A DNA stretch of 64,000 nt from Escherichia phage SUT_E420. The notes beneath the pieces were generated by a model that was not told where the DNA came from, did not search any database, and worked only from the letters and a program-made list of their open reading frames with translations. Numbering within the stretch: the first letter of the stretch is position 1; the number at the start of each line of letters is the position of its first letter. The stretch is taken from the sequence record OQ990039. One strand, written 5' to 3'. The position numbers and the translations under genes are program-made. Below, piece by piece: positions 28,650-62,564 of the stretch.

Positions 28650-30842
28650 TTGAAAATCGCAGTAGTTGATAAAGCTCTAAATAACACTCGTTACGATAAA
28701 CATTTCCAGCTATACGGCGAGGAAGTTGATGTATTTCATATGTGTAACGAGAAGTTATCTGGTCGTTTGCTTAAAAAGCACATTACTATTGGAACACCAG
28801 AAAATCCATTTGATCCGAATGATTACGATTTTGTTATACTAGTAGGTGCTGAACCTTTCCTGTATTTCGCAGGTAAGAAAGGCATTGGTGACTATACTGG
28901 TAAACGTGTAGAATATAATGGATATGCTAACTGGATTGCAAGTATCAGCCCAGCCCAGTTACACTTTAAGCCTGAAATGAAACCAGTTTTCGATGCAACA
29001 GTAGAGAATATCCACGATATTATCAATGGTCGTGAAAAGATTGCAAAAGCTGGTGATTACCGTCCTATTACTGACCCTGATGAGGCGGAAGAATATATCA
29101 AGATGGTGTATAATATGGTTATCGGACCTGTCGCATTCGACTCCGAAACCTCAGCACTATACTGTCGAGATGGTTATCTGCTTGGTGTTTCTATATCTCA
29201 CCAAGAGTATCAGGGTGTATATATCGATTCTGATTGTCTCACAGAGGTTGCAGTATATTATCTCCAGAAAATTCTGGATAGTGAAAACCACACTATTGTT
29301 TTTCACAACTTGAAGTTTGATATGCACTTTTATAAGTACCATCTGGGACTTACTTTTGATAAAGCACATAAAGAACGCAGGCTCCATGATACAATGTTGC
29401 AGCATTATGTTCTAGATGAGCGTCGTGGTACTCATGGCTTGAAATCTCTAGCAATGAAGTATACCGATATGGGTGACTATGACTTTGAACTAGATAAGTT
29501 CAAAGATGATTACTGCAAAGCACATAAAATCAAGAAAGAAGATTTCACCTATGATTTAATTCCGTTTGATATTATGTGGCCTTACGCTGCAAAAGATACC
29601 GATGCCACCATACGCTTGCACAACTTCTTCTTACCAAAAATTGAGAAGAATGAAAAACTTTGCAGTCTGTATTATGATGTTCTAATGCCTGGTTGTGTAT
29701 TTCTCCAGCGTGTTGAGGATCGTGGTGTACCNNNNNNNNNNNNNNNNNNNNNNNNNNNNNNNNNNNNNNNNNNNNNNNNNNNNNNNNNNNNNNNNNNNNN
29801 NNNNNNNNNNNNNNNNNNNNNNNNNNNNNNNGGGTATCGTGTAATCGCATGGGACTTAACAACTGCGGAAGTTTATTATGCTGCTGTTCTATCTGGGGAT
29901 AGAAATATGCAACAGGTATTTATCAATATGAGAAATGAACCTGATAAATACCCGGACTTCCACTCTAACATCGCACACATGGTATTTAAACTCCAATGCG
30001 AGCCTCGTGATGTTAAAAAGTTATTCCCAGCTCTGCGTCAGGCTGCTAAGGCAATTACCTTCGGTATTTTGTATGGTTCTGGCCCAGCTAAAGTAGCTCA
30101 TTCTGTTAACGAAGCTCTTCTGGAACAGGCTGCTAAGACAGGAGAACCGTTTGTTGAATGTACTGTTGCGGATGCGAAGGACTATATCGAAACTTACTTC
30201 GGTCAGTTCCCACAGCTTAAGCGTTGGATTGATAAGTGCCACGATCAGATTAAGAATCATGGATTTATCTATAGTCACTTTGGTCGTAAGCGTCGTCTGC
30301 ACAATATCCACTCCGAAGACCGTGGTGTTCAGGGTGAAGAAATTCGTTCTGGATTTAACGCAATCATTCAGTCTGCTTCCTCTGATAGCCTCCTTTTAGG
30401 TGCTGTAGATGCAGATAATGAGATCATTTCTCTTGGCCTAGAACAAGAGATGAAGATTGTTATGCTGGTTCATGACTCCGTGGTTGCTATTGTTCGTGAG
30501 GATTTGATCGACCAATACAATGAAATCCTGATTCGTAATATTCAGAAAGACCGTGGTATCAGTATTCCTGGCTGTCCGATTGGTATTGATTCAGATTCTG
30601 AAGCTGGAGGTTCTCGTGACTATTCTTGTGGTAAGATGAAGAAACAGCACCCATCAATCGCTTGTATTGATGATGATGAATATACTCGTTATGTCAAGAG
30701 TGTATTACTTGATGCAGAGTTCGAGTATAAGAAACTAGCTGCAATGGATAAAGAGCATCCAGATCATAGCAAATACAAGGATGATAAGTTTATTGCTGTA
30801 TGTAAAGATTTGGATAACGTAAGAAGGATTCTCGGTGCTTGA
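28650..30842 (+). CDS. DNA polymerase, family A with 3'-5' exonuclease domain (interrupted by an assembly gap)
   Basis: TTG start after AGAGGAG SD. Exo motif FDSETSALY, Pol motif B RQAAKAITFGILYGSG, motif C LVHDSV. Gap 29732-29831 has no flanking duplication. Confidence 0.9.
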   Translation: MKIAVVDKALNNTRYDKHFQLYGEEVDVFHMCNEKLSGRLLKKHITIGTPENPFDPNDYDFVILVGAEPFLYFAGKKGIGDYTGKRVEYNGYANWIASISPAQLHFKPEMKPVFDATVENIHDIINGREKIAKAGDYRPITDPDEAEEYIKMVYNMVIGPVAFDSETSALYCRDGYLLGVSISHQEYQGVYIDSDCLTEVAVYYLQKILDSENHTIVFHNLKFDMHFYKYHLGLTFDKAHKERRLHDTMLQHYVLDERRGTHGLKSLAMKYTDMGDYDFELDKFKDDYCKAHKIKKEDFTYDLIPFDIMWPYAAKDTDATIRLHNFFLPKIEKNEKLCSLYYDVLMPGCVFLQRVEDRGVXXXXXXXXXXXXXXXXXXXXXXXXXXXXXXXXXXGYRVIAWDLTTAEVYYAAVLSGDRNMQQVFINMRNEPDKYPDFHSNIAHMVFKLQCEPRDVKKLFPALRQAAKAITFGILYGSGPAKVAHSVNEALLEQAAKTGEPFVECTVADAKDYIETYFGQFPQLKRWIDKCHDQIKNHGFIYSHFGRKRRLHNIHSEDRGVQGEEIRSGFNAIIQSASSDSLLLGAVDADNEIISLGLEQEMKIVMLVHDSVVAIVREDLIDQYNEILIRNIQKDRGISIPGCPIGIDSDSEAGGSRDYSCGKMKKQHPSIACIDDDEYTRYVKSVLLDAEFEYKKLAAMDKEHPDHSKYKDDKFIAVCKDLDNVRRILGA
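29732..29831. other. Assembly gap (100 N) without flanking duplication, inside the polymerase gene
   Basis: No repeated flank; likely conceals real polymerase sequence. Confidence 0.95.
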
Positions 30843-33977: not shown

Positions 33978-34077
33978 NNNNNNNNNNNNNNNNNNNNNNN
34001 NNNNNNNNNNNNNNNNNNNNNNNNNNNNNNNNNNNNNNNNNNNNNNNNNNNNNNNNNNNNNNNNNNNNNNNNNNNNN
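33978..34077. other. Assembly gap (100 N) flanked by identical 77-bp copies
   Basis: 77-bp flank (33901-33977) repeated exactly at 34078-34154. Confidence 0.95.
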
Positions 34078-34165: not shown

Positions 34166-35320
34166 ATGAGAATATTATTTAGTGCTGATCATCATATCAA
34201 ACTAGGACAAGATAAAGTTCCAAAGGAATGGCAGAAGCGTCGCTTCCTGATGCTAGGAGAACGGTTAAATGATATATTCCATAATCATAACTGTGATCTT
34301 CATATTGCTGGTGGTGATATACTTGATGTTGCCGACCCGTCGTCAGAAGAAATAGAACTGCTTGAACAGTTCATGTCAAGACTTGACCATCCAGGCAAAA
34401 TCTTTACTGGAAATCATGAAATGTTAACGAAAACCATTTCATGTCTATATCATTATGCAGGAGTTATTAATAAAGTAACGAGTGGTAAGTGGGAAGTAAT
34501 TACCAAACCATATCGTTCCCCTGAATTTGATATTGTTCCATATGACGAAATCCATAAATCTAAGTGGAAACCATCTGAATCAAAACTATGTTTCACGCAT
34601 GTTCGTGGTGAAATCCCTCCACATGTAAAACCAGANNNNNNNNNNNNNNNNNNNNNNNNNNNNNNNNNNNNNNNNNNNNNNNNNNNNNNNNNNNNNNNNN
34701 NNNNNNNNNNNNNNNNNNNNNNNNNNNNNNNNNNNTCTAAGTGGAAACCATCTGAATCAAAACTATGTTTCACGCATGTTCGTGGTGAAATCCCTCCACA
34801 TGTAAAACCAGAAATTGATCTAACTAAGTACAACTGTTATGATACTGTAATTGCTGGCGATTTACATTCTTATACTAATAGCCAGACTATCGGATCTACT
34901 AGACTCCTCTACCCAGGGTCTCCATTAACTACATCGTTCCATAGAGAACGCACAAAAGGTACAAATGGTTGCTTTATCGTTGATACCGACACATTAAAAG
35001 TAGAATGGATTGAACTCGGTGATTTACCACAACTGATTCGTAAAACAATCGGAGCTGGTGAAGAGATGGAACCTAGTGATTATGATCGTGTAGTCTATGA
35101 AGTTACTGGTGACGTTGTTCAATTAAAGTCTATCAAAGACTCTGATTTATTAGATAAGAAGATTAACCATCGAGTTACTAAAGACGCTAAGTTAAATCTT
35201 GTTGATCTTGATATGTTAGGCGAACTTGAACTTTACTTCCGTGAAGTTGAGAAGCTATCTCAAGGCGACATTGATAGAATCTTGGCTAGAGCTGCGAAAT
35301 ATGTCAAAGATTACAATTAA
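34166..35320 (+). CDS. sbcD: SbcD/Mre11-like nuclease (calcineurin-like phosphoesterase)
   Basis: N-terminal MRILFSADHHI metallophosphatase motif I. Contains artifact gap 34636-34735 with duplicated flank; true protein about 59 aa shorter. Confidence 0.85.
   Translation: MRILFSADHHIKLGQDKVPKEWQKRRFLMLGERLNDIFHNHNCDLHIAGGDILDVADPSSEEIELLEQFMSRLDHPGKIFTGNHEMLTKTISCLYHYAGVINKVTSGKWEVITKPYRSPEFDIVPYDEIHKSKWKPSESKLCFTHVRGEIPPHVKPXXXXXXXXXXXXXXXXXXXXXXXXXXXXXXXXXXSKWKPSESKLCFTHVRGEIPPHVKPEIDLTKYNCYDTVIAGDLHSYTNSQTIGSTRLLYPGSPLTTSFHRERTKGTNGCFIVDTDTLKVEWIELGDLPQLIRKTIGAGEEMEPSDYDRVVYEVTGDVVQLKSIKDSDLLDKKINHRVTKDAKLNLVDLDMLGELELYFREVEKLSQGDIDRILARAAKYVKDYN
34636..34735. other. Assembly gap (100 N) flanked by identical 77-bp copies
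   Basis: Exact 77-bp duplication either side. Confidence 0.95.
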
Positions 35321-35372: not shown

Positions 35373-35472
35373 NNNNNNNNNNNNNNNNNNNNNNNNNNNN
35401 NNNNNNNNNNNNNNNNNNNNNNNNNNNNNNNNNNNNNNNNNNNNNNNNNNNNNNNNNNNNNNNNNNNNNNNN
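35373..35472. other. Assembly gap (100 N) flanked by identical 77-bp copies
   Basis: Exact 77-bp duplication either side; duplicates the sbcD stop / sbcC start junction. Confidence 0.95.
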
Positions 35473-35477
35473 GAAAT

Positions 35478-37670
35478 ATGTCAAAGATTACAATTAAGAC
35501 ACTAAAATTTAGTAACGTTATGTCTTACGGTAAGGACATCGTAATTCATCTCGATAAGAATCCCGTTACTCAACTAATCGGGGGCAATGGGCTAGGGAAA
35601 TCTACAATTGCTACTGTTATTGAAGAACTATTCTATAATAAGAACTCACGCGGTATTAAGAAAGATGCTCTGTTCTCTTGGTCTTCTCCGAAAAAAGAAT
35701 ACGATATGCACGCTTATTTCTCGAAAGATGAGGATGAGTATGAACTGCATAAAGTAGTTAAGTCAACTGCTAAAGTAACTCTTATTAAGAATGGGGAAGA
35801 TATTAGTGGACACACGGCAACCCAAACATACAAGATGATTGAAGAAATTATGGGTGGTGACTTCCAAACATTCACCAAACTGATTTATCAATCGGTGGGC
35901 TCCAATCTAGACTTTCTAAAAGCAACGGATGCAACACGTAAGGCTTTTCTTGTTAACTTGTTCAATCAAGAACAGTATAAAGAAATGTCAGAAACTATTA
36001 AGGCNNNNNNNNNNNNNNNNNNNNNNNNNNNNNNNNNNNNNNNNNNNNNNNNNNNNNNNNNNNNNNNNNNNNNNNNNNNNNNNNNNNNNNNNNNNNNNNN
36101 NNNNGATGCAACACGTAAGGCTTTTCTTGTTAACTTGTTCAATCAAGAACAGTATAAAGAAATGTCAGAAACTATTAAGGCTGACCGTAAAGAAATAGCA
36201 AATACCTTAAACAATTTGCAAGGCCAAATGGCTGTAATTACGAAAATCCTTAATGGAAAGAATAATCTAGGAACTCTACAGGAACCTGTAGAAGTACCGG
36301 AGTTTGATGAAGAACCATTAGCACAAGAACTTACTGAATCGAAAATTAAGGCGGCATTAGCCAAGTCTCAAGAGGCTAATATTACTAAATTGCGTAATTT
36401 GGACAAAGCTGTACAAGTTGCCGAACAATCTTTCGAACCTTTCAAAAATTTACCCGCGCCCACCGACCAAAACGAAGAGATCTCAAGTGTTACGCGTGAC
36501 CTAACGATTGTGACCTCACGTGCTGGTGAAGTTAAGAAACGTTATCAGAAGTTCAAGCAAGAGGCTTCAAATACTGAATGTCCTACTTGTGGTACTCATC
36601 TGGATACAACTGCCGCTCAAAAAGCAATGGATATGGCTAGAACAGAATATGATCCTCTGTTCAAAGAGAAGCAATCTCTTGAAGCTAAGCTAGAACAGTT
36701 GAGGAAAGAACAACTTGAGTACGTTGCGTATATTAGAGCAAAGGATGCCTTGGATAAAGCAGTGGTAGCTAGGGACGAGTTCAAAAATTCAATGAGTGAT
36801 GCTTCTTTTGAAGAACTCAATGTGCAAATCCTACAGGTGCAAATCCGACAATTAGAACAGGAAATCGCTGATGGNNNNNNNNNNNNNNNNNNNNNNNNNN
36901 NNNNNNNNNNNNNNNNNNNNNNNNNNNNNNNNNNNNNNNNNNNNNNNNNNNNNNNNNNNNNNNNNNNNNNNNNNGATGCTTCTTTTGAAGAACTCAATGT
37001 GCAAATCCTACAGGTGCAAATCCGACAATTAGAACAGGAAATCGCTGATGGACGTTCTAAGGTTGCAATTGCCAAAGAGCATAATGCAAATGTCGAATTA
37101 GCCAATGCAAAATATAAAGCGAAACTAGAACAGATTGAGAAAGCTGAAGCAGAAATGTCCGAGATTACTTCCAAATTAAATGAAGTATCAGAAGCTGTTG
37201 CTGATCTCGATATTCTGATTGCTGCATTGAAGAATTTAGTAGGATATAAACTAGAGCATAGTGTGAAAGTATTTGAAGAACTAATTAATAAATACCTTTC
37301 TATTATGACTGGCGGTAAATTCGCACTTGGATTTGAACTTGATGAAACAAAATTACAAGTAGTAATCTTCAATGATGGAAATCGTACCAGTATGGAGAAC
37401 TGCTCTACTGGTCAACAGAGTCGAATTAACCTAGCAACCCTGTTAGCTATTCGGATGCTGTTAACATCTATTAGTAAAGTTAATATTAATCTTCTATTCC
37501 TTGATGAAGTAATTAGCTTTATTGATACGAAAGGACTTGACACTCTTGTTGAATTATTAAACGAGGAAGAAAGTCTAAATTCTATCATTGTTTCTCATGG
37601 GCATACGCATCCACTAGCTCATAAGATTACTGTCAAAAAAGATGCAGAAGGATTTTCCTACTTAGAATAA
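35478..37670 (+). CDS. sbcC: SbcC/Rad50-like ATPase
   Basis: MSKITIKTLKFSNVMSYG start (second copy, after the gap; first copy at 35299); Walker A GGNGLGKST, long coiled-coil, Walker B LLFLDEVISFID. Contains gaps 36005-36104 and 36875-36974. Confidence 0.8.
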   Translation: MSKITIKTLKFSNVMSYGKDIVIHLDKNPVTQLIGGNGLGKSTIATVIEELFYNKNSRGIKKDALFSWSSPKKEYDMHAYFSKDEDEYELHKVVKSTAKVTLIKNGEDISGHTATQTYKMIEEIMGGDFQTFTKLIYQSVGSNLDFLKATDATRKAFLVNLFNQEQYKEMSETIKXXXXXXXXXXXXXXXXXXXXXXXXXXXXXXXXXXDATRKAFLVNLFNQEQYKEMSETIKADRKEIANTLNNLQGQMAVITKILNGKNNLGTLQEPVEVPEFDEEPLAQELTESKIKAALAKSQEANITKLRNLDKAVQVAEQSFEPFKNLPAPTDQNEEISSVTRDLTIVTSRAGEVKKRYQKFKQEASNTECPTCGTHLDTTAAQKAMDMARTEYDPLFKEKQSLEAKLEQLRKEQLEYVAYIRAKDALDKAVVARDEFKNSMSDASFEELNVQILQVQIRQLEQEIADXXXXXXXXXXXXXXXXXXXXXXXXXXXXXXXXXXDASFEELNVQILQVQIRQLEQEIADGRSKVAIAKEHNANVELANAKYKAKLEQIEKAEAEMSEITSKLNEVSEAVADLDILIAALKNLVGYKLEHSVKVFEELINKYLSIMTGGKFALGFELDETKLQVVIFNDGNRTSMENCSTGQQSRINLATLLAIRMLLTSISKVNINLLFLDEVISFIDTKGLDTLVELLNEEESLNSIIVSHGHTHPLAHKITVKKDAEGFSYLE
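36005..36104. other. Assembly gap (100 N) flanked by identical 77-bp copies
   Basis: Exact 77-bp duplication either side. Confidence 0.95.
36875..36974. other. Assembly gap (100 N) flanked by identical 77-bp copies
   Basis: Exact 77-bp duplication either side. Confidence 0.95.
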
Positions 37671-37673
37671 AAC

Positions 37674-38333
37674 ATGGCTGTAGATAGTAGAGAGAAAGGT
37701 AAACGTGGTGAATATCAGGTAAGAGATATTCTACGTGAGCGTACAGGTCTTGAGTGGGAACGTGTTCCTGGCTCTGGTGCTTTTGGCCAGAGCCACGGAC
37801 TGAAAGGTGACATCTACCTTCCACCACAAAGCGGACACATTAGTAAATACTGCTTCGAAGTTAAGTGGTANNNNNNNNNNNNNNNNNNNNNNNNNNNNNN
37901 NNNNNNNNNNNNNNNNNNNNNNNNNNNNNNNNNNNNNNNNNNNNNNNNNNNNNNNNNNNNNNNNNNNNNNCACGGACTGAAAGGTGACATCTACCTTCCA
38001 CCACAAAGCGGACACATTAGTAAATACTGCTTCGAAGTTAAGTGGTATAAAGATGATAATATATCAAGTAATTTATTTAATGTTGGTGAATCCACTCTAG
38101 AGAAGTGGTGGCAGCAGTGCTCACGTGAAGGTGAGCAGATGAACTCCAAACCTGCATTAATATTCAAAAAAGACAGAGGACAGTGGTTAATAGCTTTGGA
38201 TAGCTCAGACCCAATGGTTGACAACTTAATGAGTCGTACCCATATGGTGTTAAATAAGAAAGACATGGAAATCGTAATTGGTTTATTTGAACCGTGGCTA
38301 CATCATGCATCTGTTGAGGACTTAATTAAATAA
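37674..38333 (+). CDS. Putative Holliday-junction resolvase (Hjc-like PD-(D/E)xK nuclease)
   Basis: GKRGEYQVRDILRE...RVPGSG...GDIYL...FEVKW resembles the archaeal Hjc pattern. Contains artifact gap 37871-37970. Confidence 0.45.
   Translation: MAVDSREKGKRGEYQVRDILRERTGLEWERVPGSGAFGQSHGLKGDIYLPPQSGHISKYCFEVKWXXXXXXXXXXXXXXXXXXXXXXXXXXXXXXXXXXHGLKGDIYLPPQSGHISKYCFEVKWYKDDNISSNLFNVGESTLEKWWQQCSREGEQMNSKPALIFKKDRGQWLIALDSSDPMVDNLMSRTHMVLNKKDMEIVIGLFEPWLHHASVEDLIK
37871..37970. other. Assembly gap (100 N) flanked by identical 77-bp copies
   Basis: Exact 77-bp duplication either side. Confidence 0.95.
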
Positions 38334-39385
38334 TGAGTAAATCCTGGGGAAAATTTATTGAAGAAGAGGAAGCTGAAATGGCTTCCCGTCGTAACCTAAT
38401 GATTGTCGATGGAACTAACTTAGGCTTTCGCTTCAAACATAANNNNNNNNNNNNNNNNNNNNNNNNNNNNNNNNNNNNNNNNNNNNNNNNNNNNNNNNNN
38501 NNNNNNNNNNNNNNNNNNNNNNNNNNNNNNNNNNNNNNNNNNGAGGAAGCTGAAATGGCTTCCCGTCGTAACCTAATGATTGTCGATGGAACTAACTTAG
38601 GCTTTCGCTTCAAACATAACAACAGTAAAAAACCATTTGCCTCAAGTTATGTTTCCACTATTCAGTCTCTAGCAAAATCTTATTCTGCTAGAACTACAAT
38701 AGTTTTAGGAGATAAGGGGAAGTCTGCATTCCGCTTAGAGCATTTACCTGAGTATAAGGGTAATCGAGATGAGAAATACTCTCAGCGTACGGAAGAGGAG
38801 AAAGCGTTAGATGAGCAGTTCTTCGAGTATTTGAAAGATGCTTTCGAGTTATGTGAAACTACATTCCCAACTTTCACTATTCGGGGTGTAGAAGCAGATG
38901 ATATGGCAGCTTATATTGTTAAACTGATCGGGCATCTATATGATCACGTTTGGCTGATTTCTACTGATGGTGACTGGGATACTTTATTAACTGATAAAGT
39001 ATCTCGCTTCTCTTTCACAACACGTCGTGAATACCATCTTCGTGATATGTATGAGCATCATAATGTTGACGATGTAGAGCAGTTTATCTCCCTGAAAGCA
39101 ATTATGGGTGATTTAGGGGATAATATCCGAGGTGTTGAAGGTATTGGGGCAAAGCGCGGGTATAATATTATTCGTGAATTTGGTAACGTTCTGGATATTA
39201 TTGATCAGCTTCCACTGCCTGGAAAACAGAAATATATACAGAATTTAAATGCTTCGGAAGAATTGCTTTATCGAAACCTAATTCTGGTTGATTTACCTAC
39301 CTACTGTGTGGATGCTATTGCTGCTGTAGGTCAAGATGTATTAGATAAATTTACAAAAGATATTTTGGAGATTGCAGAACAATGA
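38333..39385 (+). CDS. Flap endonuclease / 5'-3' exonuclease (T5 D15-like)
   Basis: LMIVDGTNLGFRFKH and downstream acidic clusters typical of FEN. True length about 291 aa after removing artifact gap 38443-38542. Confidence 0.9.
   Translation: MSKSWGKFIEEEEAEMASRRNLMIVDGTNLGFRFKHXXXXXXXXXXXXXXXXXXXXXXXXXXXXXXXXXXEEAEMASRRNLMIVDGTNLGFRFKHNNSKKPFASSYVSTIQSLAKSYSARTTIVLGDKGKSAFRLEHLPEYKGNRDEKYSQRTEEEKALDEQFFEYLKDAFELCETTFPTFTIRGVEADDMAAYIVKLIGHLYDHVWLISTDGDWDTLLTDKVSRFSFTTRREYHLRDMYEHHNVDDVEQFISLKAIMGDLGDNIRGVEGIGAKRGYNIIREFGNVLDIIDQLPLPGKQKYIQNLNASEELLYRNLILVDLPTYCVDAIAAVGQDVLDKFTKDILEIAEQ
38443..38542. other. Assembly gap (100 N) flanked by identical 77-bp copies
   Basis: Exact 77-bp duplication either side. 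Confidence 0.95.
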
Positions 39386-40110: not shown

Positions 40111-42879
40111 CTATGAGTTATCTGGCTTAATAAGCTCGCTAACAAGTTTCTTCAGTTCGGTTAATTCTTGCTCAAGTTTGTTAACTTTATCAGCTTGATA
40201 ACGAAATGCGCAAGCTAGATCTGCCATAATGACGTTGTTATCAAGTGCTAATGTGTCATCTGCTTTGTCAACAACAATTTGGCGGTCTACATATTCTTCA
40301 CCGTCATCGTTAACACCTATAACATCTGCAAAAATATCTCCACCAGGAATTAATTTTACATATTCCGGGTCTATTTTTAGAAGGTCTTGGGCTATTAAGC
40401 CAAATCGCTGTATGTTGCTTCCATTGTATTTAAACATTGTCGGAAGCCACTGCATAACGCGATCATAGCTTTCTTTTCCATCTGTATAGATTATATCGTG
40501 CTTTAAATCTCTGTCAGAGTTAGCGGCCTTTTGAAAAATGAAGTTTCCATTTGATGACCATGTGGTTATATCGTTTGAGGCTGGTTGAAACTGGAAGTTA
40601 CAGAAAAAATTACCATCACCACGAAGTCTTAACGAGCAAAAAGGCCAAGCATTATTTCCCTGTGGGATAAGACCCCAAGTTGCACGAATTGGATAACCAC
40701 CAGTTGATTGTGTACCCCATGAAAGGCCAGGCGCCCATCCACCATCATTGTTAGGAATAATCTCGCCCCAAACAAGAGCATTACCCCAATAGTTAGGATC
40801 ATCCCAGCCCATTTGTTGGGTTTTGCCAGTGTATTGAGCAGAATGAGTTCTGCCGTCAGGGTAAAACTTGTGCATATAGGACTGTATCCCTGCTTGATAC
40901 AATTCTATTCCAAAAGATTCAACGTGTGTGTCGCCTCTTCTGATTAAACCAGCGATAGCGTAATCGTCATACCAGTTGTAACGACTTACACCAGTCCATG
41001 TGTTTATTGGTGGATTCATGATTGAGAATAGTTGTGACGCATTGCGTTCATTCCCGTCTGCATAAATACCAGCCCCAGGAGCTAAGGAAATACTTTTCGC
41101 TCCCGAAAAAGTACCATTTTCATTAAACTGATAATACTGTGCTAACCCATTATGAAATACGCCTATTGTATGCTTTCCTACGCCTACTTGAGTCTCAAAA
41201 TACGACTGAGAAGAACCAATATCTTCGCCTTGGGTATTCTTTAGTTTTGAATGGTATATACCTGCGTTTGCAGTAACTGCATTTTCCGTTTCATTTTCAA
41301 CATTAAGACTAAGGAACTTTGGCGCATGTTTCTCACCAAGCCCTATATTATTTCTGATACCATTCGCATCCTTAGCACCTGTACCACCAAATTGAATACC
41401 TAGTGGTAGCCATTGATCGGTGGTAGCATCATAAACGCCCCAATGATCCCCGTCAGCTGGAATGGTTAGATACTTGTTTTTATTTGGAGAATATAAAACT
41501 GTTTCTACAGAATTCTGAAACAGCCTATCAACTCCTAAATTATATCTAGCACCTTCAGGAGTATCTGCTCCTGTACCCCCAGCCGCAGTTGATAATGGAA
41601 GAGTTTCCCATGAAATTCCGTCACCTGTTGCATTTCTCTGAAGTACAATAAGACCATCATCTCTAATAACAAATCTATATAATCTATTATGTGAATATAA
41701 AAAAGTATGAACCCCATCTTGCACAAGTGAGTCTATAAGGAGTGTCTGACGAGAAGCATTGATATCCAACAGATCTGAAAGATTATTTTCTTTTAATAAC
41801 GATTTACTAATGATACCTTCAGCTTTTCCAGCAGCCACTTCCGCGCGCCCAGCGTCTGTAGATGCGCTTTGTGCGCTACCAGCAGCATTGCTAGCTTGTT
41901 GTCCTGCTTCGATAGCGCTATTGCTTGCTTGTGCAGCGGAAGCAGCAGCAGCATCTTTTAGCGTGGTAGTTTCGGACACAGCAGCGTCCTTAATTCCCTG
42001 TGTGTCTATTTTTAGCTGCTCAACGTCTGATTTTAAAGCTACTGTCTCTGCTACTGCAGTATCCTTAATACCTTGTGTATCTATTTTTAGCTGTTCAACA
42101 TCTGATTTTAAGCCTTGAATAGTAGTTACTGATTGGCTAGCTGAGGCTGCGGAATGGGCTGCATTGGTTTCACTAGTTTTTGCATTGGTTTCACTAGTTT
42201 TTGCATTGGTTTCACTAGCTTTTGCATTAGTTTCCGAGGTTTTTGCAGCGGATGCTGATGCGGCGGCTTGTGCAGAGAATATTTCTGCCCCATCTCTATA
42301 GCCTTTAGAATCCGAAGCAGAAGCAGCAGCATTAGTTTCACTAGCCTTTGCCTTATCTTCACTAGTCTTTGCTGCAATAGCAGAAGCAGCAGCATTAGTT
42401 TCACTAGCCTTTGCCTTATCTTCGCTAGCCTTTGCATTAGTCTCACTAGTTTTTGCGTTAGTCTCACTAGTTTTTGCATTAGTTTCACTAGCCTTTGCCT
42501 TATCTTCGCTAGTTTTAGCATTAGTCTCAGATATTTTAGCTGCAGCTGCTGATTCCTCCGATTTAGTAGCTGATGCAGCAGATTGAGTAGCAGATGTAGC
42601 GGACTGAGTGGCAGAGGCTTCAGAAGCTCCAGCAGAAATAGCAGCTTCCTGTTCAGAGTTCTTAGCATTAAGCTCCGAAGTTTTAGCCGCTATCTCAGAA
42701 TCTTTTGCAGCTGCAGCAGACTTAGCTGCAGCCTCAATAGAAGATACTAACTCACTTGCAGTAATAGAGCTAATAGAATTACCTAGAGTTACTGTATATC
42801 TAGGAAACTTACTAGCAGTAGCTTTAGTATCATCAATATTTAATATTTGTTGTACAATAATTTTAGTAGTTACTGCCAT
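40111..42879 (-). CDS. Tail fibre protein with C-terminal intramolecular chaperone (peptidase S74-like) domain
   Basis: 922 aa; N-terminal heptad SETNAKT repeats and Ala/Ser-rich coiled coil; C-terminal SDRDLKHDI...GLIAQDL matches the S74 chaperone signature. Confidence 0.75.
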   Translation of the reverse strand: MAVTTKIIVQQILNIDDTKATASKFPRYTVTLGNSISSITASELVSSIEAAAKSAAAAKDSEIAAKTSELNAKNSEQEAAISAGASEASATQSATSATQSAASATKSEESAAAAKISETNAKTSEDKAKASETNAKTSETNAKTSETNAKASEDKAKASETNAAASAIAAKTSEDKAKASETNAAASASDSKGYRDGAEIFSAQAAASASAAKTSETNAKASETNAKTSETNAKTSETNAAHSAASASQSVTTIQGLKSDVEQLKIDTQGIKDTAVAETVALKSDVEQLKIDTQGIKDAAVSETTTLKDAAAASAAQASNSAIEAGQQASNAAGSAQSASTDAGRAEVAAGKAEGIISKSLLKENNLSDLLDINASRQTLLIDSLVQDGVHTFLYSHNRLYRFVIRDDGLIVLQRNATGDGISWETLPLSTAAGGTGADTPEGARYNLGVDRLFQNSVETVLYSPNKNKYLTIPADGDHWGVYDATTDQWLPLGIQFGGTGAKDANGIRNNIGLGEKHAPKFLSLNVENETENAVTANAGIYHSKLKNTQGEDIGSSQSYFETQVGVGKHTIGVFHNGLAQYYQFNENGTFSGAKSISLAPGAGIYADGNERNASQLFSIMNPPINTWTGVSRYNWYDDYAIAGLIRRGDTHVESFGIELYQAGIQSYMHKFYPDGRTHSAQYTGKTQQMGWDDPNYWGNALVWGEIIPNNDGGWAPGLSWGTQSTGGYPIRATWGLIPQGNNAWPFCSLRLRGDGNFFCNFQFQPASNDITTWSSNGNFIFQKAANSDRDLKHDIIYTDGKESYDRVMQWLPTMFKYNGSNIQRFGLIAQDLLKIDPEYVKLIPGGDIFADVIGVNDDGEEYVDRQIVVDKADDTLALDNNVIMADLACAFRYQADKVNKLEQELTELKKLVSELIKPDNS
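42150..42540. repeat. 21-bp tandem coding repeats (heptad TSETNAK) within the tail fibre gene
   Basis: Repeated GGTTTCACTAGTTTTTGCATT-type units on the plus strand in two blocks. Confidence 0.7.
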
Positions 42880-43301
42880 TATTTAGTTACCCCATCACTG
42901 ATAAATACTTTACCCTCCATTATACGAAAGGAGCTAATTGCAGATCCTATAACATCTCTAGTCATAATTATATCATAGTATCCTGCGAATCGCTGACGAG
43001 GGTTATATTTATCTCTATCTTTAGATGCTCTAGCCCCTATATTTTCCACAGATTCTACTGGCAAACTTATAGCTACAGCCCCTTGAGCAGCATCAATAAT
43101 ATTAGTAGTAAAGGATGCTAATATCTCCGCATTCTCATCTAGGCTATTTTTTATAGTACCCCTTAGAGAATACCCGGTTAAGTTAACGGGGGTATTTGTA
43201 GGTGGATAAGTACTATCATCAACATCTAAGAACTGCATCATTAAACCATATGGTACTTTCTCATCTATTACTAAATCTATAACTCTATTTTCAGTACTCA
43301 T
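42879..43301 (-). CDS. Tail collar-like protein (T5 p132-like, tentative)
   Basis: 140 aa; position between the fibre gene and the baseplate genes. Confidence 0.4.
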
Positions 43302-43304
43302 TAT

Positions 43305-45554
43305 TTACCTTATATGGATGTACCCGTTTTGCAGGTCTATCTTCATTCTGTAATAGGCTTCCGGATTATCAGATAATGCAGCGTTTCTATCATAAATAAC
43401 GTTAACACCGATCTGAGATAAGAAGGCATTATTTGCTACAATCTTACTGGCGGTTACCGTACCATTAACTATCATATCGCCATGCAGTACCATTGCTGGG
43501 TTAACCCAACCGGAACCATTCCATTGACGAGTAAATGCAGATTGCGGAGCATTACTATTAAACTCTGTCAATACATCATATCTAACTGGAGGACTACCAA
43601 AGTTATTCTGGAAGAAGGCATTAGCCTGCCCATCATCCCAACCACCAAGACCAGGAATACCTAAGGAATACATTCCAGGACCACGTTGTCCATCATGTCC
43701 TATAGTACCTTCAGTACCACTCCACTGAACTACATCAGACCAGCTAGTACCTGCAAGTAGCTTATTAGTAACTGGGTCAAGTGTACCCGTAGTCGCATAG
43801 ATATTTTGTGTCATATCTGTACGATTAGGTGGAGTTTTTGACCAACCAGGAGGCGGATAATCTTGTTCTAGTGGCTTTGCTGGAAGTGCAGTTGATATCT
43901 TATAAACAAATACTGTTTGCTTGCCCTGTATACCTGTTTGGATATCTACATCGCCATTTGGTGTTCCAATTACTACTCCACTAGAAATACGTAGTACATC
44001 ACCATCATAACGAATCCACTGTGTGGCATTACCAATGTCTAACTTAGCTTTGGCAGAGGTATTATCCATGCCCATCCAAATACCGGAGTTATTATCCCCC
44101 CAAGATTTACCTTGAGTGTAAATTGCTGGATTATCCTTACCGGATAAGTTAGTCATGATAAAATTCGCAGCATTAATATCTCTAGTAATTACTTTACCAT
44201 CAACGTTAACAACACGGTTTATAGGATCAAAAGAAATAGGTGCTTTTCCCTCTTCATCTAGCAGACCAATGTTAATAGCACCAGTAGCTGCATCGATTAA
44301 GAATGTCTGTCTCCAGATTTCTCCATCTTTCATGCTGCCCTTAATAAAGGCATAGTTAACATCAATACCAGTCTCATTGACAAAGCTGTTATCTAGAGGA
44401 GTATCTTCATTCAATATAAATGTTACAGGAGCTGATTCTGTTATATCTTGTTTATTTGGTCCCCAGGCAATTGATGATACCTTAAAGGTATGTTCAACTT
44501 TCCATGGGAATGATATAATTGTTGCAGCTCTGGCAGCACCAACGTTTATCTTTTGAGCTTTAGCCCAGCCAGTCTTAGCGTATTCTTCAGAATTTATATA
44601 TGTAACCAAGAACTCACGAACATTAGCACCACCACCGCGTTCCCAATCCCACTCAATTCTAACATCATATCGTTCTTTACCATCAGCAATTCGTGCAGCT
44701 TTAAAAACAATATTGATAGGTGCAGTAGGAGGAACAAAATTATAAGCTACTGTTAAAATATTAGGGAATTCATAGTACCCAGAAGAATCAACTGTAACAC
44801 CATCAGGCATAGTTACTTGACCAGATATTCTGATCTTATAATCTCCGATAGGAACTCCACCAAATTTAATAGTAGAACCTAAAGCCCCAATGTAATACTT
44901 AGTCCAAGGACTGTCTTCAGTAGCTGTACTTTTTAACTCAATAGTACAGTAGCTTGCTTCACCAGTTGTTTCTACGACAACTATCGGTGCACCTACCCCA
45001 ACATCCACAGGTTCTGATTCAGATCTTGCTGCAACAATTATTGGCTTCTCTTTTGTCCTAAAGTTAGTCTCATTAGAGAGATTGATACCAATCTTAGCCT
45101 CTAGCAGTTCAGAATCAATAATAGAGTCGTAGAAAGCCCCTTGAATCTCGTAAGAGGTTGAAGGGGTCAGGTTATTAATCATTATGAAGAAAGTATCTAT
45201 ACCAGTATAATCACGTCTATCTATACTTTCTCCTGTCTTTAACCAAAAAGATCTACCAATAANNNNNNNNNNNNNNNNNNNNNNNNNNNNNNNNNNNNNN
45301 NNNNNNNNNNNNNNNNNNNNNNNNNNNNNNNNNNNNNNNNNNNNNNNNNNNNNNNNNNNNNNGAAGAAAGTATCTATACCAGTATAATCACGTCTATCTA
45401 TACTTTCTCCTGTCTTTAACCAAAAAGATCTACCAATAACGTCATAGTCAGTATATATAGAGTGCTGGACATATGCCATTGTATATCCAGTCATTATACT
45501 ATTTAAGACCATTTTGGCTGGTGCATTATTCGAAATCATTAAATGGATGCCCAC
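43305..45554 (-). CDS. Baseplate/central fibre protein (T5 pb4-like, tentative)
   Basis: Large beta-rich ORF in the tail-tip module. Start uncertain (GTG 45554 or ATG 45539). Contains artifact gap 45263-45362. Confidence 0.45.
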   Translation of the reverse strand: MGIHLMISNNAPAKMVLNSIMTGYTMAYVQHSIYTDYDVIGRSFWLKTGESIDRRDYTGIDTFFXXXXXXXXXXXXXXXXXXXXXXXXXXXXXXXXXXIGRSFWLKTGESIDRRDYTGIDTFFIMINNLTPSTSYEIQGAFYDSIIDSELLEAKIGINLSNETNFRTKEKPIIVAARSESEPVDVGVGAPIVVVETTGEASYCTIELKSTATEDSPWTKYYIGALGSTIKFGGVPIGDYKIRISGQVTMPDGVTVDSSGYYEFPNILTVAYNFVPPTAPINIVFKAARIADGKERYDVRIEWDWERGGGANVREFLVTYINSEEYAKTGWAKAQKINVGAARAATIISFPWKVEHTFKVSSIAWGPNKQDITESAPVTFILNEDTPLDNSFVNETGIDVNYAFIKGSMKDGEIWRQTFLIDAATGAINIGLLDEEGKAPISFDPINRVVNVDGKVITRDINAANFIMTNLSGKDNPAIYTQGKSWGDNNSGIWMGMDNTSAKAKLDIGNATQWIRYDGDVLRISSGVVIGTPNGDVDIQTGIQGKQTVFVYKISTALPAKPLEQDYPPPGWSKTPPNRTDMTQNIYATTGTLDPVTNKLLAGTSWSDVVQWSGTEGTIGHDGQRGPGMYSLGIPGLGGWDDGQANAFFQNNFGSPPVRYDVLTEFNSNAPQSAFTRQWNGSGWVNPAMVLHGDMIVNGTVTASKIVANNAFLSQIGVNVIYDRNAALSDNPEAYYRMKIDLQNGYIHIR
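45263..45362. other. Assembly gap (100 N) flanked by identical 77-bp copies
   Basis: Exact 77-bp duplication either side. Confidence 0.95.
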
Positions 45555-60382: not shown

Positions 60383-61950
60383 TCTTTATCTCCCTCGGTG
60401 GAACCTTGAGGTCTGCCACCTTCTTGACCAGATACACCTGTTACAGAACCAGCAACGTTAGCAGGAATACGAATCTTATCCATCTGCTCATCATCTAAAG
60501 GTTCAAGGTTCAGCTCTAAACGAGCTTCGTTACCAGTCATAATACCATTATTAACCAATGAGGTTAAATGTTTAGCCTCAGCTTCTTTATCTGGTGTTAA
60601 TGCAGCTACTTCCTTAGTATTAGGAGTAATCTTATAACCAAAAAAGAAAGTAAGAGAACTAGTCAGTTTGTTCAGCATAGGAATGATAGTCATATAATAG
60701 AACAGTTCGATATTTGGTCGAATGTTCGCATTATTACCACCATCAAGCAGTACTTGCGGAACACCAAAGGCTAGACAGATAGATTTATTAAATCCTTCAA
60801 TGTCTTCCTTGAAGTCTAGGTCTTTAAAAGAGGATATTTGGGAGTACGGTTTAGCTTTCATACCACCATCTAGAATCAGGACAGAGGACTGACCAGTACT
60901 AGGATTATAATCTAGTTGTAATTCTTCTTGTTTACGCTCACGCAATTTCTTGTTCAGGATTTCATCCGTCTCAAGAATAAGACCAATCACNNNNNNNNNN
61001 NNNNNNNNNNNNNNNNNNNNNNNNNNNNNNNNNNNNNNNNNNNNNNNNNNNNNNNNNNNNNNNNNNNNNNNNNNNNNNNNNNNNNNNNNNAGTTGTAATT
61101 CTTCTTGTTTACGCTCACGCAATTTCTTGTTCAGGATTTCATCCGTCTCAAGAATAAGACCAATCACAGTTCCATTATCGAGGAATTTCTCTTTAAAGTT
61201 AAGCATCTTAGAACGCTTCTCAAGAGAGTCAATAACAGTAGCAACACGAGATTGTCCAGAAATTTGAGAATTTGTGCCACACACGTAACTGTTATCCTTT
61301 ATAAAGATAATCTCATCTACGCGATAGTCTATCTGGTTATTAAATATAAATTTTTTGATAAACTTATTGGCATCTGCCTCTACTTGCATTAATGCAGCAG
61401 GGACATGGTAAAGTGCTGTGCCATCCCAATAGATGTATGCACAACCTTCAAAAAGTAGGTCAGTGACTACAAGTCTACGGAATGTGCTTATATNNNNNNN
61501 NNNNNNNNNNNNNNNNNNNNNNNNNNNNNNNNNNNNNNNNNNNNNNNNNNNNNNNNNNNNNNNNNNNNNNNNNNNNNNNNNNNNNNNNNNNNNTGTGCCA
61601 TCCCAATAGATGTATGCACAACCTTCAAAAAGTAGGTCAGTGACTACAAGTCTACGGAATGTGCTTATATCCATGAATGGATTAGGTCGTACATTTAAGA
61701 GAGTGTCTAGAGTCTTTGCCTTGATGCCATTGGCATACGTGACAATATTATATTTATCTCCGACAGTATAAGAACACTCCGCCGCACTATCTATAACCAT
61801 ATTAGCAGTTCTATTGAGAATCTCAATTTTACTGTAGGCTTGTCCAGTGGTAAAAGGCTTACGGTTAGTGCGATGACTAACTGGTTCCATGTCTCTTATA
61901 ATACGTTGACCCGGATTTAGCTTTTCAGTAATCCAGCTTTTAAAACCCAT
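60379..61950 (-). CDS. Portal protein
   Basis: Lies between the terminase-proximal HNH gene and the decoration/protease genes. Contains gaps 60991-61090 and 61494-61593; true length about 405 aa. Confidence 0.65.
   Translation of the reverse strand: MGFKSWITEKLNPGQRIIRDMEPVSHRTNRKPFTTGQAYSKIEILNRTANMVIDSAAECSYTVGDKYNIVTYANGIKAKTLDTLLNVRPNPFMDISTFRRLVVTDLLFEGCAYIYWDGTXXXXXXXXXXXXXXXXXXXXXXXXXXXXXXXXXXISTFRRLVVTDLLFEGCAYIYWDGTALYHVPAALMQVEADANKFIKKFIFNNQIDYRVDEIIFIKDNSYVCGTNSQISGQSRVATVIDSLEKRSKMLNFKEKFLDNGTVIGLILETDEILNKKLRERKQEELQXXXXXXXXXXXXXXXXXXXXXXXXXXXXXXXXXXVIGLILETDEILNKKLRERKQEELQLDYNPSTGQSSVLILDGGMKAKPYSQISSFKDLDFKEDIEGFNKSICLAFGVPQVLLDGGNNANIRPNIELFYYMTIIPMLNKLTSSLTFFFGYKITPNTKEVAALTPDKEAEAKHLTSLVNNGIMTGNEARLELNLEPLDDEQMDKIRIPANVAGSVTGVSGQEGGRPQGSTEGDKE
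60991..61090. other. Assembly gap (100 N) flanked by identical 77-bp copies
   Basis: Exact 77-bp duplication either side. Confidence 0.95.
61494..61593. other. Assembly gap (100 N) flanked by identical 77-bp copies
   Basis: Exact 77-bp duplication either side. Confidence 0.95.
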
Positions 61951-62564
61951 TATAAGAACCTTGCGAATCCTGATTTTGTTTCAGTCTTGACTTGTGTCTT
62001 TTCTTGAGGATTCTGTAATTTGTCTTTCTGCTTTTGAACCCACACTTTTTGCTTATTAGCAGAAAATAAAGGAGGTTCTTTTGTGTAAACCTTATGTAAT
62101 AATTGGTGATGGTGNNNNNNNNNNNNNNNNNNNNNNNNNNNNNNNNNNNNNNNNNNNNNNNNNNNNNNNNNNNNNNNNNNNNNNNNNNNNNNNNNNNNNN
62201 NNNNNNNNNNNNNNACCCACACTTTTTGCTTATTAGCAGAAAATAAAGGAGGTTCTTTTGTGTAAACCTTATGTAATAATTGGTGATGGTGTACACAAAG
62301 GGTAACAGTGTCTTCTACTAGCTCATGCCTATATCGATCATAGAATGCCGTCCTATTTGAAAGGACTATTTCTTCGTCAGTGAAATCCAATTGGAGTTCT
62401 TTAGCAAATTTTTTAACTAGTAGAGACACCGTATGGTAATGATGAAGCTCTAATTCTTCAGCACAACCGCAGATAGCACATTGAGAGTCTTTTTTATATT
62501 GACTTTTTATTCCGTCTCTCATAAGGGATATAGCATCGCGTTTATATTTTATATTGCTTGCCAT
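61950..62564 (-). CDS. HNH endonuclease adjacent to terminase
   Basis: Start at ATG 62564 with GAGGAG SD; Cys/His motif CAICGCAEELELHHYH...LCVHHHQLLH. Contains artifact gap 62115-62214. Confidence 0.65.
   Translation of the reverse strand: MASNIKYKRDAISLMRDGIKSQYKKDSQCAICGCAEELELHHYHTVSLLVKKFAKELQLDFTDEEIVLSNRTAFYDRYRHELVEDTVTLCVHHHQLLHKVYTKEPPLFSANKQKVWXXXXXXXXXXXXXXXXXXXXXXXXXXXXXXXXXXHHHQLLHKVYTKEPPLFSANKQKVWVQKQKDKLQNPQEKTQVKTETKSGFARFL
62115..62214. other. Assembly gap (100 N) flanked by identical 77-bp copies
   Basis: Exact 77-bp duplication either side. Confidence 0.95.

Follow-up and report, generated by a model that had tools for sequence, protein, structure and literature searches.

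Tandem heptad repeats in the L-shaped tail fibre gene of Escherichia phage SUT_E420 and the helical shaft they very probably encode

Coiled coils have been described in the proximal part of phage fibres. In the branched lateral tail fibre protein LtfA of phage DT57C (PDB 8HQZ chain d), cryo-electron microscopy (cryo-EM) places residues 1-39 as beta-strands inserted in the LtfC collar and resolves a long helix that starts at T40 and forms a three-helix coiled coil (PMC10713586). Residues 102-393 of the lambda side fibre protein Stf are described as its proximal coiled coil (PMC12617516), and the L-shaped fibre of T5, pb1 (Ltf, T5.133), ends in a chaperone with the catalytic residues S1264 and K1269 (PMC4690869). 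The words 'heptad' and 'repeat' are absent from the DT57C and T5 pb1 structure papers (PMC10713586, PMC4690869), so that the repeat organisation, though plain in sequences that have long been public, is not explicitly discussed there, and a literature search for 'SETNA' together with 'tail fiber' found nothing. Here we analyse this organisation in a stretch of 64,000 nucleotides (hereafter the window) of Escherichia phage SUT_E420 (record OQ990039), in which the 5′ part of the tail fibre gene ltf is built from tandem 21-bp units. We conclude that these repeats very probably encode the long alpha-helical shaft of a T5-like L-shaped tail fibre, most likely as a parallel trimeric coiled coil. Such repeats are an ordinary feature of a fibre family that is already known: the gene has been deposited before, and the heptads are common to T5 pb1 and lambda Stf. 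The coiled-coil nature of the fibre start had already been shown for DT57C, and little here is new.

An earlier reading made from the letters alone (the sequence-only reading) had called the gene a tail fibre gene. Pfam context, DNA identity and matches to T5 pb1 and DT57C LtfA confirm this and specify a T5-type L-shaped tail fibre.

40111-42879, minus strand: L-shaped tail fibre gene ltf (pb1/Ltf homologue), 922 amino acids (aa) plus stop codon, identified from the list of open reading frames (ORFs), DNA identity and matches to T5 pb1, PDB 8hqz_d and PHROG.

At the DNA level ltf is 100% identical in Escherichia phages SUT_E1520 and SUT_E520, 99.9% identical in T5_ev212 and 99.7% in EC148, all of which are Tequintavirus. 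The 922-aa ORF matches PHROG tail fibre families, its residues 1-196 match DT57C LtfA (8hqz_d, E = 1.5e-34), and BLASTP aligns residues 1-227 with T5 pb1 at 52% identity, AKTSETN heptads included. The protein has what marks a T5-type Ltf, namely homology to the collar anchor, a position downstream of LtfC/p132 and pb4 as in T5, and a C-terminal Peptidase_S74 chaperone whose S-D-x-x-L-K motif, shared with pb1, holds the Ser-Lys dyad. These matches identify the product as a T5-like L-shaped tail fibre, composed of collar anchor, shaft, distal binding part and self-cleaving chaperone. It differs from pb1 in length (922 against 1396 aa) and in its unrelated distal receptor-binding part, similarity ceasing to be detectable past about residue 230; neither the KGYRDGAEIFSAQ segment (14 aa) nor the KSDVEQLK repeats (25 aa), both described below, occur in pb1. 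DT57C LtfA shares the homologous 196 N-terminal residues and the C-terminal chaperone, but fibres of the DT57C type have just 6-9 SExxA heptads and another middle and distal part. They also carry a second protein, LtfB; no second fibre gene was seen in the window, where the next gene downstream of ltf lies on the opposite strand.

The repeats had been placed at 41985-42540, which corresponds to aa 114-298 of the ORF. Heptad layout, column counts and a shuffle test define a longer regular stretch.

42121-42750, minus strand: heptad stretch of 30 uninterrupted heptads, aa 44-253.

All 30 heptads follow a single unbroken register, with Ala at position a in 24 of 30 and Ser at position d in 28 of 30, and the consensus reads A-K-(T/A)-S-E-(T/D)-(N/K); heptads of the form SExxA number 18 in the protein. 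DNA identity at a lag of 21 nucleotides (nt) within 41985-42540 is 0.55, compared with 0.28 after shuffling (z = 15), and protein identity at a lag of 7 within aa 40-253 is 0.48, compared with 0.16 (z = 13). The periodicity is thus far above chance. A repeat search returned 12 in-register copies spaced 21 nt, in two blocks 126 nt apart. Within and just beyond the heptad stretch, Tandem Repeats Finder and the repeat search, together with the AlphaFold model for the last entry, delimit the following elements.

42310-42540, minus strand: array A, 11 heptads of consensus AK(T/A)SE(T/D)(N/K), aa 114-190.
42316-42435, minus strand: 63-bp duplication (21 aa, three heptads per unit), AK.SEDKAKASETNAAASA.., within aa 149-190 and inside array A.
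42163-42246, minus strand: array B, aa 212-239, AK(T/A)SETN repeated four times and more homogeneous than any other 21-bp array.
41962-42111, minus strand: array C, two 25-aa (75-bp) units, each LKSDVEQLKIDTQGIKD plus 8 aa, aa 257-306.
42268-42312, minus strand: DSKGYRDGAEIFSAQ, aa 190-204, a conserved segment outside the repeats that keeps the heptad phase and coincides with a predicted helix break.

Tandem Repeats Finder reports array A at 42329-42523 (period 21 bp, 9.3 copies, 68% matches), the duplication at 42316-42435 (period 63 bp, 1.9 copies, 96% matches), which also holds the longest exact repeat of the gene (45 nt), and array B at 42160-42247 (4.2 copies, 91% matches), where two adjacent units are identical. 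The tandem-repeat check suggested for this region thus found two recent 21-bp arrays and a 63-bp unit, in agreement with the claim of tandem heptad units in the consensus given above. In array C the repeat search found two 68-nt arms with 82% identity, 75 nt apart (41969-42111), which encode both LKSDVEQLKIDTQGIKD copies; lag-75 identity of the region is 0.77. The sequence-only reading had equated a duplicated 63-bp unit with the pair of KSDVEQLKIDTQGIKD copies. Two copies are indeed present (aa 258-273 and 283-298, about 41986-42108), and so is a true 63-bp duplication, at 42316-42435, but the period of the KSDVEQLKIDTQGIKD pair, which is not in the Tandem Repeats Finder list, is 75 bp (25 aa). 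As 25 residues are 3 x 7 + 4, each array C unit shifts the heptad register by four residues. The KGYRDGAEIFSAQ segment keeps the heptad phase, with Y194 and F201 occupying the d (Ser) column, and the AlphaFold break at residues 190-196 raises the possibility that DSKGYRDGAEIFSAQ acts as a hinge, perhaps where the L-shaped fibre bends. Fibres like that of DT57C carry a GFRD.AE motif at about aa 122.

The number of repeat units was compared among related phages, as the sequence-only reading had proposed, in IMG/VR and GenBank relatives. Seven phages with 93-100% identity (SUT_E1520, SUT_E520, T5_ev212, EC148, MM-1, MM-2 and Elw) have an ltf of exactly 2769 bp, and ABTNLsp4, 94.6% identical over the 5′ 930 nt, shows no length difference. 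At about 89% identity, OSYSP (969 aa), MET_P1_179_112 (933 aa) and VEc33 (940 aa) differ from the window fibre in length solely by indels in the arrays, with 7 aa added in array B and 11 and 36 aa in array C. Across the wider set, array A measures 54, 85 or 88 aa except in relative L017, where a deletion of 98 aa (14 heptads) has taken it out; array B has 3, 4 or 5 units; and array C (55, 66, 80 or 102 aa) comprises 2 or 3 units, in some relatives along with 11-aa units. All of these indels lie inside the arrays and comprise whole units (7, 11, 25, 36 or 98 aa). The distance from the SSITA anchor motif to IQGLKSD is 119, 179, 210, 217, 220 or 224 residues, a multiple of 7 for four of the six lengths and 14 of the 16 sequences. 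Listed coordinates of the 60 best GenBank records give a net length difference over the shared 5′ part of 0, +21, -21, -42 or +9 nt; the EC100 group, which matches in two pieces, shows +88 nt, resolved as one array B unit fewer and one array C unit more. The T5-like fibres compared carry 2 to 19 SExxA heptads.

The earlier expectation that the arrays vary fibre length between isolates therefore needs restating: whole-unit indels do occur among relatives, but none separates the seven phages at 93% identity or more. Length variation is confined to relatives no more than about 90% identical, and is best described, from these comparisons, as slow copy-number evolution, not as hypervariability from one isolate to the next. 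Slippage or recombination would fit the unit-wise changes; the units are imperfect and the pace of change is slow. We also considered that the arrays might act as a fast-switching, contingency-type locus in which frequent slippage makes fibre length differ between isolates or within a population. Tandem 21-bp units, the two identical adjacent units of array B and its copy number of 3, 4 or 5 among relatives would suit such a locus. However, the seven phages and ABTNLsp4 do not differ in length, the units are only 68-91% alike with no long runs of perfect copies and no exact repeat beyond 45 nt, and every unit is a multiple of 3 nt, so that on/off frameshifting is impossible. We regard such switching as improbable.

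Repeat copies within one genome resemble each other in ways that set lineages apart. The variable residue of AK[x]SETN is the same in both copies of the 63-bp duplication, being Ala in the window, Ser in Elw, Ile in OSYSP and VEc33 and Thr in L6jm, and position 266/291 of array C likewise holds a lineage-specific residue common to both copies. Copies within a genome are 0.78-0.92 identical, often above the 0.65-0.84 of corresponding copies in distant relatives, while the flanks reach 0.82-0.95. In this small sample, compared without phylogenetic correction, the pattern suggests homogenisation of the copies by gene conversion or repeated unequal exchange.

AlphaFold predicts helices at residues 41-189 and 197-368, with pLDDT (the model's per-residue confidence score) at 60-91 by 10-residue block within them and below 50 in the break at 190-196. 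Together with the heptad layout over aa 44-253, this agrees with the earlier placement of the repeats in an N-terminal rod. The T40 residue at which the DT57C helix begins is conserved in the window fibre. In the phages DT57C and DT571/2, a 3-bp deletion that removes A198 in the N-terminal part of LtfA abolished adsorption (PMC4728585), a phenotype that would be consistent, by analogy, with the importance of helical register. At 0.148 nm per residue, a shaft of about 330 residues would measure about 48 nm when fully extended.

Several observations weigh against a trimeric coiled coil over this whole length. The core positions are occupied by Ala and Ser, small and polar, instead of the usual Leu, Ile or Val, and a classical core is not demonstrated; the AlphaFold model is that of a monomer from a single sequence, with a pTM (overall model confidence) of 0.29. 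Solved structures of T5-like fibres do not cover this part of the shaft, experiment showing just the first turns after T40, in DT57C LtfA, and the restraints used in molecular dynamics of DT57C cite helical residues 43-52, so that the modelled helix was apparently short (PMC10713586). The related helical-bundle domain of the Klebsiella depolymerase Depo32, which extends to residue 185, is invisible in its cryo-EM map (PMC10581125). Two relatives break the multiple-of-7 rule (179 and 220 residues), and the counts lack independence, since many of the sequences compared are closely related. No variation is seen between near-identical isolates; slippage would therefore be rare, and its part in copy-number change is read from outcomes only.

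These points bear on another reading of the Ala/Ser heptads, as a linker (flexible, partly disordered or made of a single helix) or as a fibre with beta-structure. The a and d positions without large hydrophobic residues, the homologous Depo32 segment left unresolved by cryo-EM and the restriction of the AlphaFold run to a monomer would all fit it. Ser and Ala are nevertheless strictly conserved at 3+4 spacing across 30 heptads, the DT57C structure shows a three-helix bundle where the helix starts, the equivalent part of lambda Stf has been modelled as a coiled coil, and the indels are mostly whole heptads. A linker or beta-structured fibre is, on this balance, unlikely, and the trimeric coiled-coil shaft is the reading we retain. 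The Klebsiella depolymerase entries 7VYV and 7VZ3 (both Depo32) and 7LZJ match aa 95-155; the two Depo32 entries were dropped as direct structural evidence for the heptads, as the helical-bundle domain is not seen in the map (PMC10581125).

Because the scaffold that makes up the window contains 14 runs of 100 N, and repeats commonly cause misassembly, the repeat structure might be an artefact of collapse or expansion in a fragmented short-read assembly. None of the runs falls inside ltf, however, and its reading frame is intact across all arrays. The 2769-bp gene recurs in the seven phages at 93-100% identity, which, to judge from record names and countries, apparently come from five or more separate sources. 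The longest exact repeat, 45 nt, is shorter than the overlaps that flank 12 of the 14 N runs, where the last 77 nt before the gap are exactly the first 77 nt after it.

18706-18805, 33978-34077, 34636-34735, 35373-35472, 36005-36104, 36875-36974: N runs flanked by the 77-nt overlap, first part.
37871-37970, 38443-38542, 45263-45362, 60991-61090, 61494-61593, 62115-62214: N runs flanked by the 77-nt overlap, second part.

Such overlaps are the signature of unmerged de Bruijn contig ends with k = 77. We rejected assembly collapse on the equal length in seven phages and on the size of the longest exact repeat, and consider a misassembled repeat structure very improbable. Repetition had also been offered as the cause of fragmentation elsewhere in the assembly, an explanation that does not hold: a search for the heptad motif found it nowhere else in the window, ltf has no gap, and the overlaps account for 12 of the 14. 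In the pb4 gap (45263-45362), which adds about 59 false codons to the pb4 ORF, removal of the Ns and of one overlap copy leaves a 523-nt string identical to SUT_E1520, with nothing missing. Most N gaps in the scaffold are trivial and can simply be merged. The gaps at 20245-20344 and 29732-29831 have no 20-mer common to their 400-nt flanks, and may hide sequence that is really missing.

The repeats also open long frames that are not those of the fibre, and two of these had been noted as spurious in the sequence-only reading. Both exist with exactly the coordinates given there.

42126-42668, minus strand: spurious ORF of 180 aa, frame +1 relative to ltf.
42268-42552, plus strand: spurious 94-aa antisense ORF.

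The unit GCA AAA ACT AGT GAA ACT AAT has no stop in frame +1, which keeps the 180-aa ORF open, and its reverse complement reads ISFTSFC, again with no stop codon. Were the two ORFs real overlapping genes, purifying selection in the alternative frame or homologues elsewhere would be expected. In favour of real genes, the +1 frame is open for 180-194 codons in most relatives, and it is annotated as a coding sequence (CDS) in Salmonella phage SA001. Yet the codons changed between the window and OSYSP are synonymous and non-synonymous in the proportion 68/28 in the fibre frame, compared with 10/84 in frame +1 and 3/83 in frame +2, and the pattern recurs in the four further relatives with enough differences (Elw, METP1, L008 and L011). 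The +1-frame ORF is broken in relatives L015-L017, neither ORF matched any PHROG family, the openness of the frame follows from the codons of the unit, and the SA001 call owes its existence solely to a 44-nt duplication that puts the real gene out of frame. On substitution patterns and lack of homologues we rejected the ORFs as genes; that they are real is extremely improbable, and they are, as far as codon changes can tell, by-products of the repeats.

In SA001 (MN445182, 503-3315), the tandem duplication (43 of 44 nt identical) lies near nt 55 of ltf, and the gene is annotated in three pieces, one of them the 180-aa off-frame ORF, deposited as CDS QKE54278.1. The frameshift reflects either a fibre-less mutant or a sequencing error. 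In lambda (NC_001416), orf206b, a hypothetical protein at 1248-1868 on the minus strand, runs antisense within the heptad region of stf orf-401 (aa 166-373) and is probably a repeat-generated shadow ORF like those described here. Two more antisense ORFs lie within the Ala-rich part of the window fibre gene, at 41759-42118 (plus strand, 119 aa) and 42608-42886 (plus strand, 92 aa), and are presumably shadow ORFs too. As the deposited SA001 CDS and its lambda parallel illustrate, such repeats can mislead annotation.

Outside the repeats the fibre comprises an anchor, the distal end of the predicted helix, a distal part and a chaperone. The anchor is nearly invariant in relatives and homologous to that of DT57C LtfA; the limits of the other parts follow from the AlphaFold helix at 197-368, from the tail fibre families PHROG 5481 and 14572, and from Pfam PF13884 with the SDxxLK motif.

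42763-42879, minus strand: N-terminal collar-binding anchor, aa 1-39.
41776-41961, minus strand: distal Ala/Ser/Gln-rich end of the predicted helix, aa 307-368.
40519-41775, minus strand: aa 369-787, distal part of the mature fibre, presumed to bind the receptor.
40114-40518, minus strand: C-terminal intramolecular chaperone (Peptidase_S74), aa 788-922.

AlphaFold gives residues 1-38 no regular structure, with anchor pLDDT below 50. The gene has mosaic junctions with other Tequintavirus fibres, located at nt 924-1107. The region 40208-41389 (gene nt 1491-2672), spanning distal fibre and chaperone start, has 88-92% DNA identity to fibre genes of siphoviruses of about 50 kb (slyngel, G29-2, atuna and MikeNSara), which indicates, as far as DNA identity can, that the receptor-binding module has been exchanged across phage families; the same region matches records labelled 'Campylobacter phage' (MG0656xx) and 'Aeromonas phage SD04', host labels that look doubtful. 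PF13884 matches aa 788-842 (E = 7e-8, better than the curated cut-off), and the S788-DRDL-K793 motif corresponds to the catalytic S1264-DARL-K1269 of T5 pb1, so that self-cleavage is predicted before S788. BLASTP gave no significant alignment of this chaperone with that of pb1, the link being made by the Pfam profile and the SDxxLK motif.

Upstream of ltf lie two ORFs of the tail module, one with the Pfam LtfC domain and the other with four PB4 straight-fibre domains.

42879-43301, minus strand: LtfC/p132 collar protein gene directly upstream of ltf (Pfam PF23926 LtfC, E = 1.6e-14; p132 or collar protein in the annotation of relatives).

The order of pb4, LtfC/p132 and ltf, that of the Tequintavirus tail module, is kept in SUT_E1520, MM-1, OSYSP, VEc33 and T5.

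The heptad extends well beyond T5-like fibres. Lambda Stf has the same Ser/Ala register, with Ser in 26 and Ala in 32 of the 42 heptads of residues 102-393, contains the identical string AAKTSETNA twice, and, as noted, probably yields an annotated antisense shadow ORF from its heptad region; it differs in its N-terminal attachment domain (phage_tail_N) and tip, and its heptads, which are more degenerate, do not form recent tandem repeats at the DNA level. T4 fibritin (gpwac) offers a more distant likeness, as a heptad-repeat trimeric coiled-coil fibre with a C-terminal folding nucleus and a length that differs among relatives; it is reportedly a segmented coiled coil whose segment number varies among T4-type phages. 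Its core is canonically hydrophobic, with loops between segments, and it serves as a whisker. We know of no sequence relationship between fibritin and the window fibre, and of no self-cleaving chaperone in fibritin.

A large protein search, which returned proteins of up to 648 aa, the window fibre itself not among them, and was used for the spread of the heptad and not for copy-number statistics, found heptads also in proteins with T7-type, lambda-type, Collar and YadA-type domains, with up to 27 consecutive units in fibres that have a T7-type N-terminal domain. Bacterial trimeric autotransporter adhesins with YadA-type anchor, stalk and head domains (P0040, P0049, P0057 and others) carry SExxA heptad stretches, which suggests a coiled-coil module that phage fibres and bacterial adhesins share or have reached by convergence. 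More speculatively, the Ala(a)/Ser(d) array might be a distinct, structurally unsolved trimeric coiled coil with a small, polar core, used as a length-tunable shaft cassette across unrelated fibres and some adhesins, whose copies gene conversion would keep alike in each genome and whose copy number selection would tune to how thick the host surface layer is. The candidates for such a cassette, an idea that we hold as tentative and rather doubtful, are T5 Ltf, lambda Stf, YadA-type adhesins and fibres with a T7-type N-terminal domain.

For the T5-like fibre itself, a trimeric helical shaft would have the following architecture. Residues 1-39 would hold the fibre in its LtfC/p132 collar; the helical part, some 330 residues starting at about residue 40, would comprise first the 30 heptads, then the 25-aa repeat region and then the Ala-rich stretch; and this shaft would bear the distal receptor-binding part, with the self-cleaving chaperone (S788/K793) coming last. 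The shaft would have grown by tandem duplication of 21-, 63- and 75-bp units, with copies within one genome partly homogenised and with a copy number that would shift slowly by slippage or unequal recombination. As copy number changes in whole structural units, the helical register is mostly kept. Each heptad would add about 1 nm, so that copy number would set the reach of the receptor-binding tip, and the natural whole-unit variants in shaft length (7, 11 and 25 aa) could guide the engineering of T5-like fibres.

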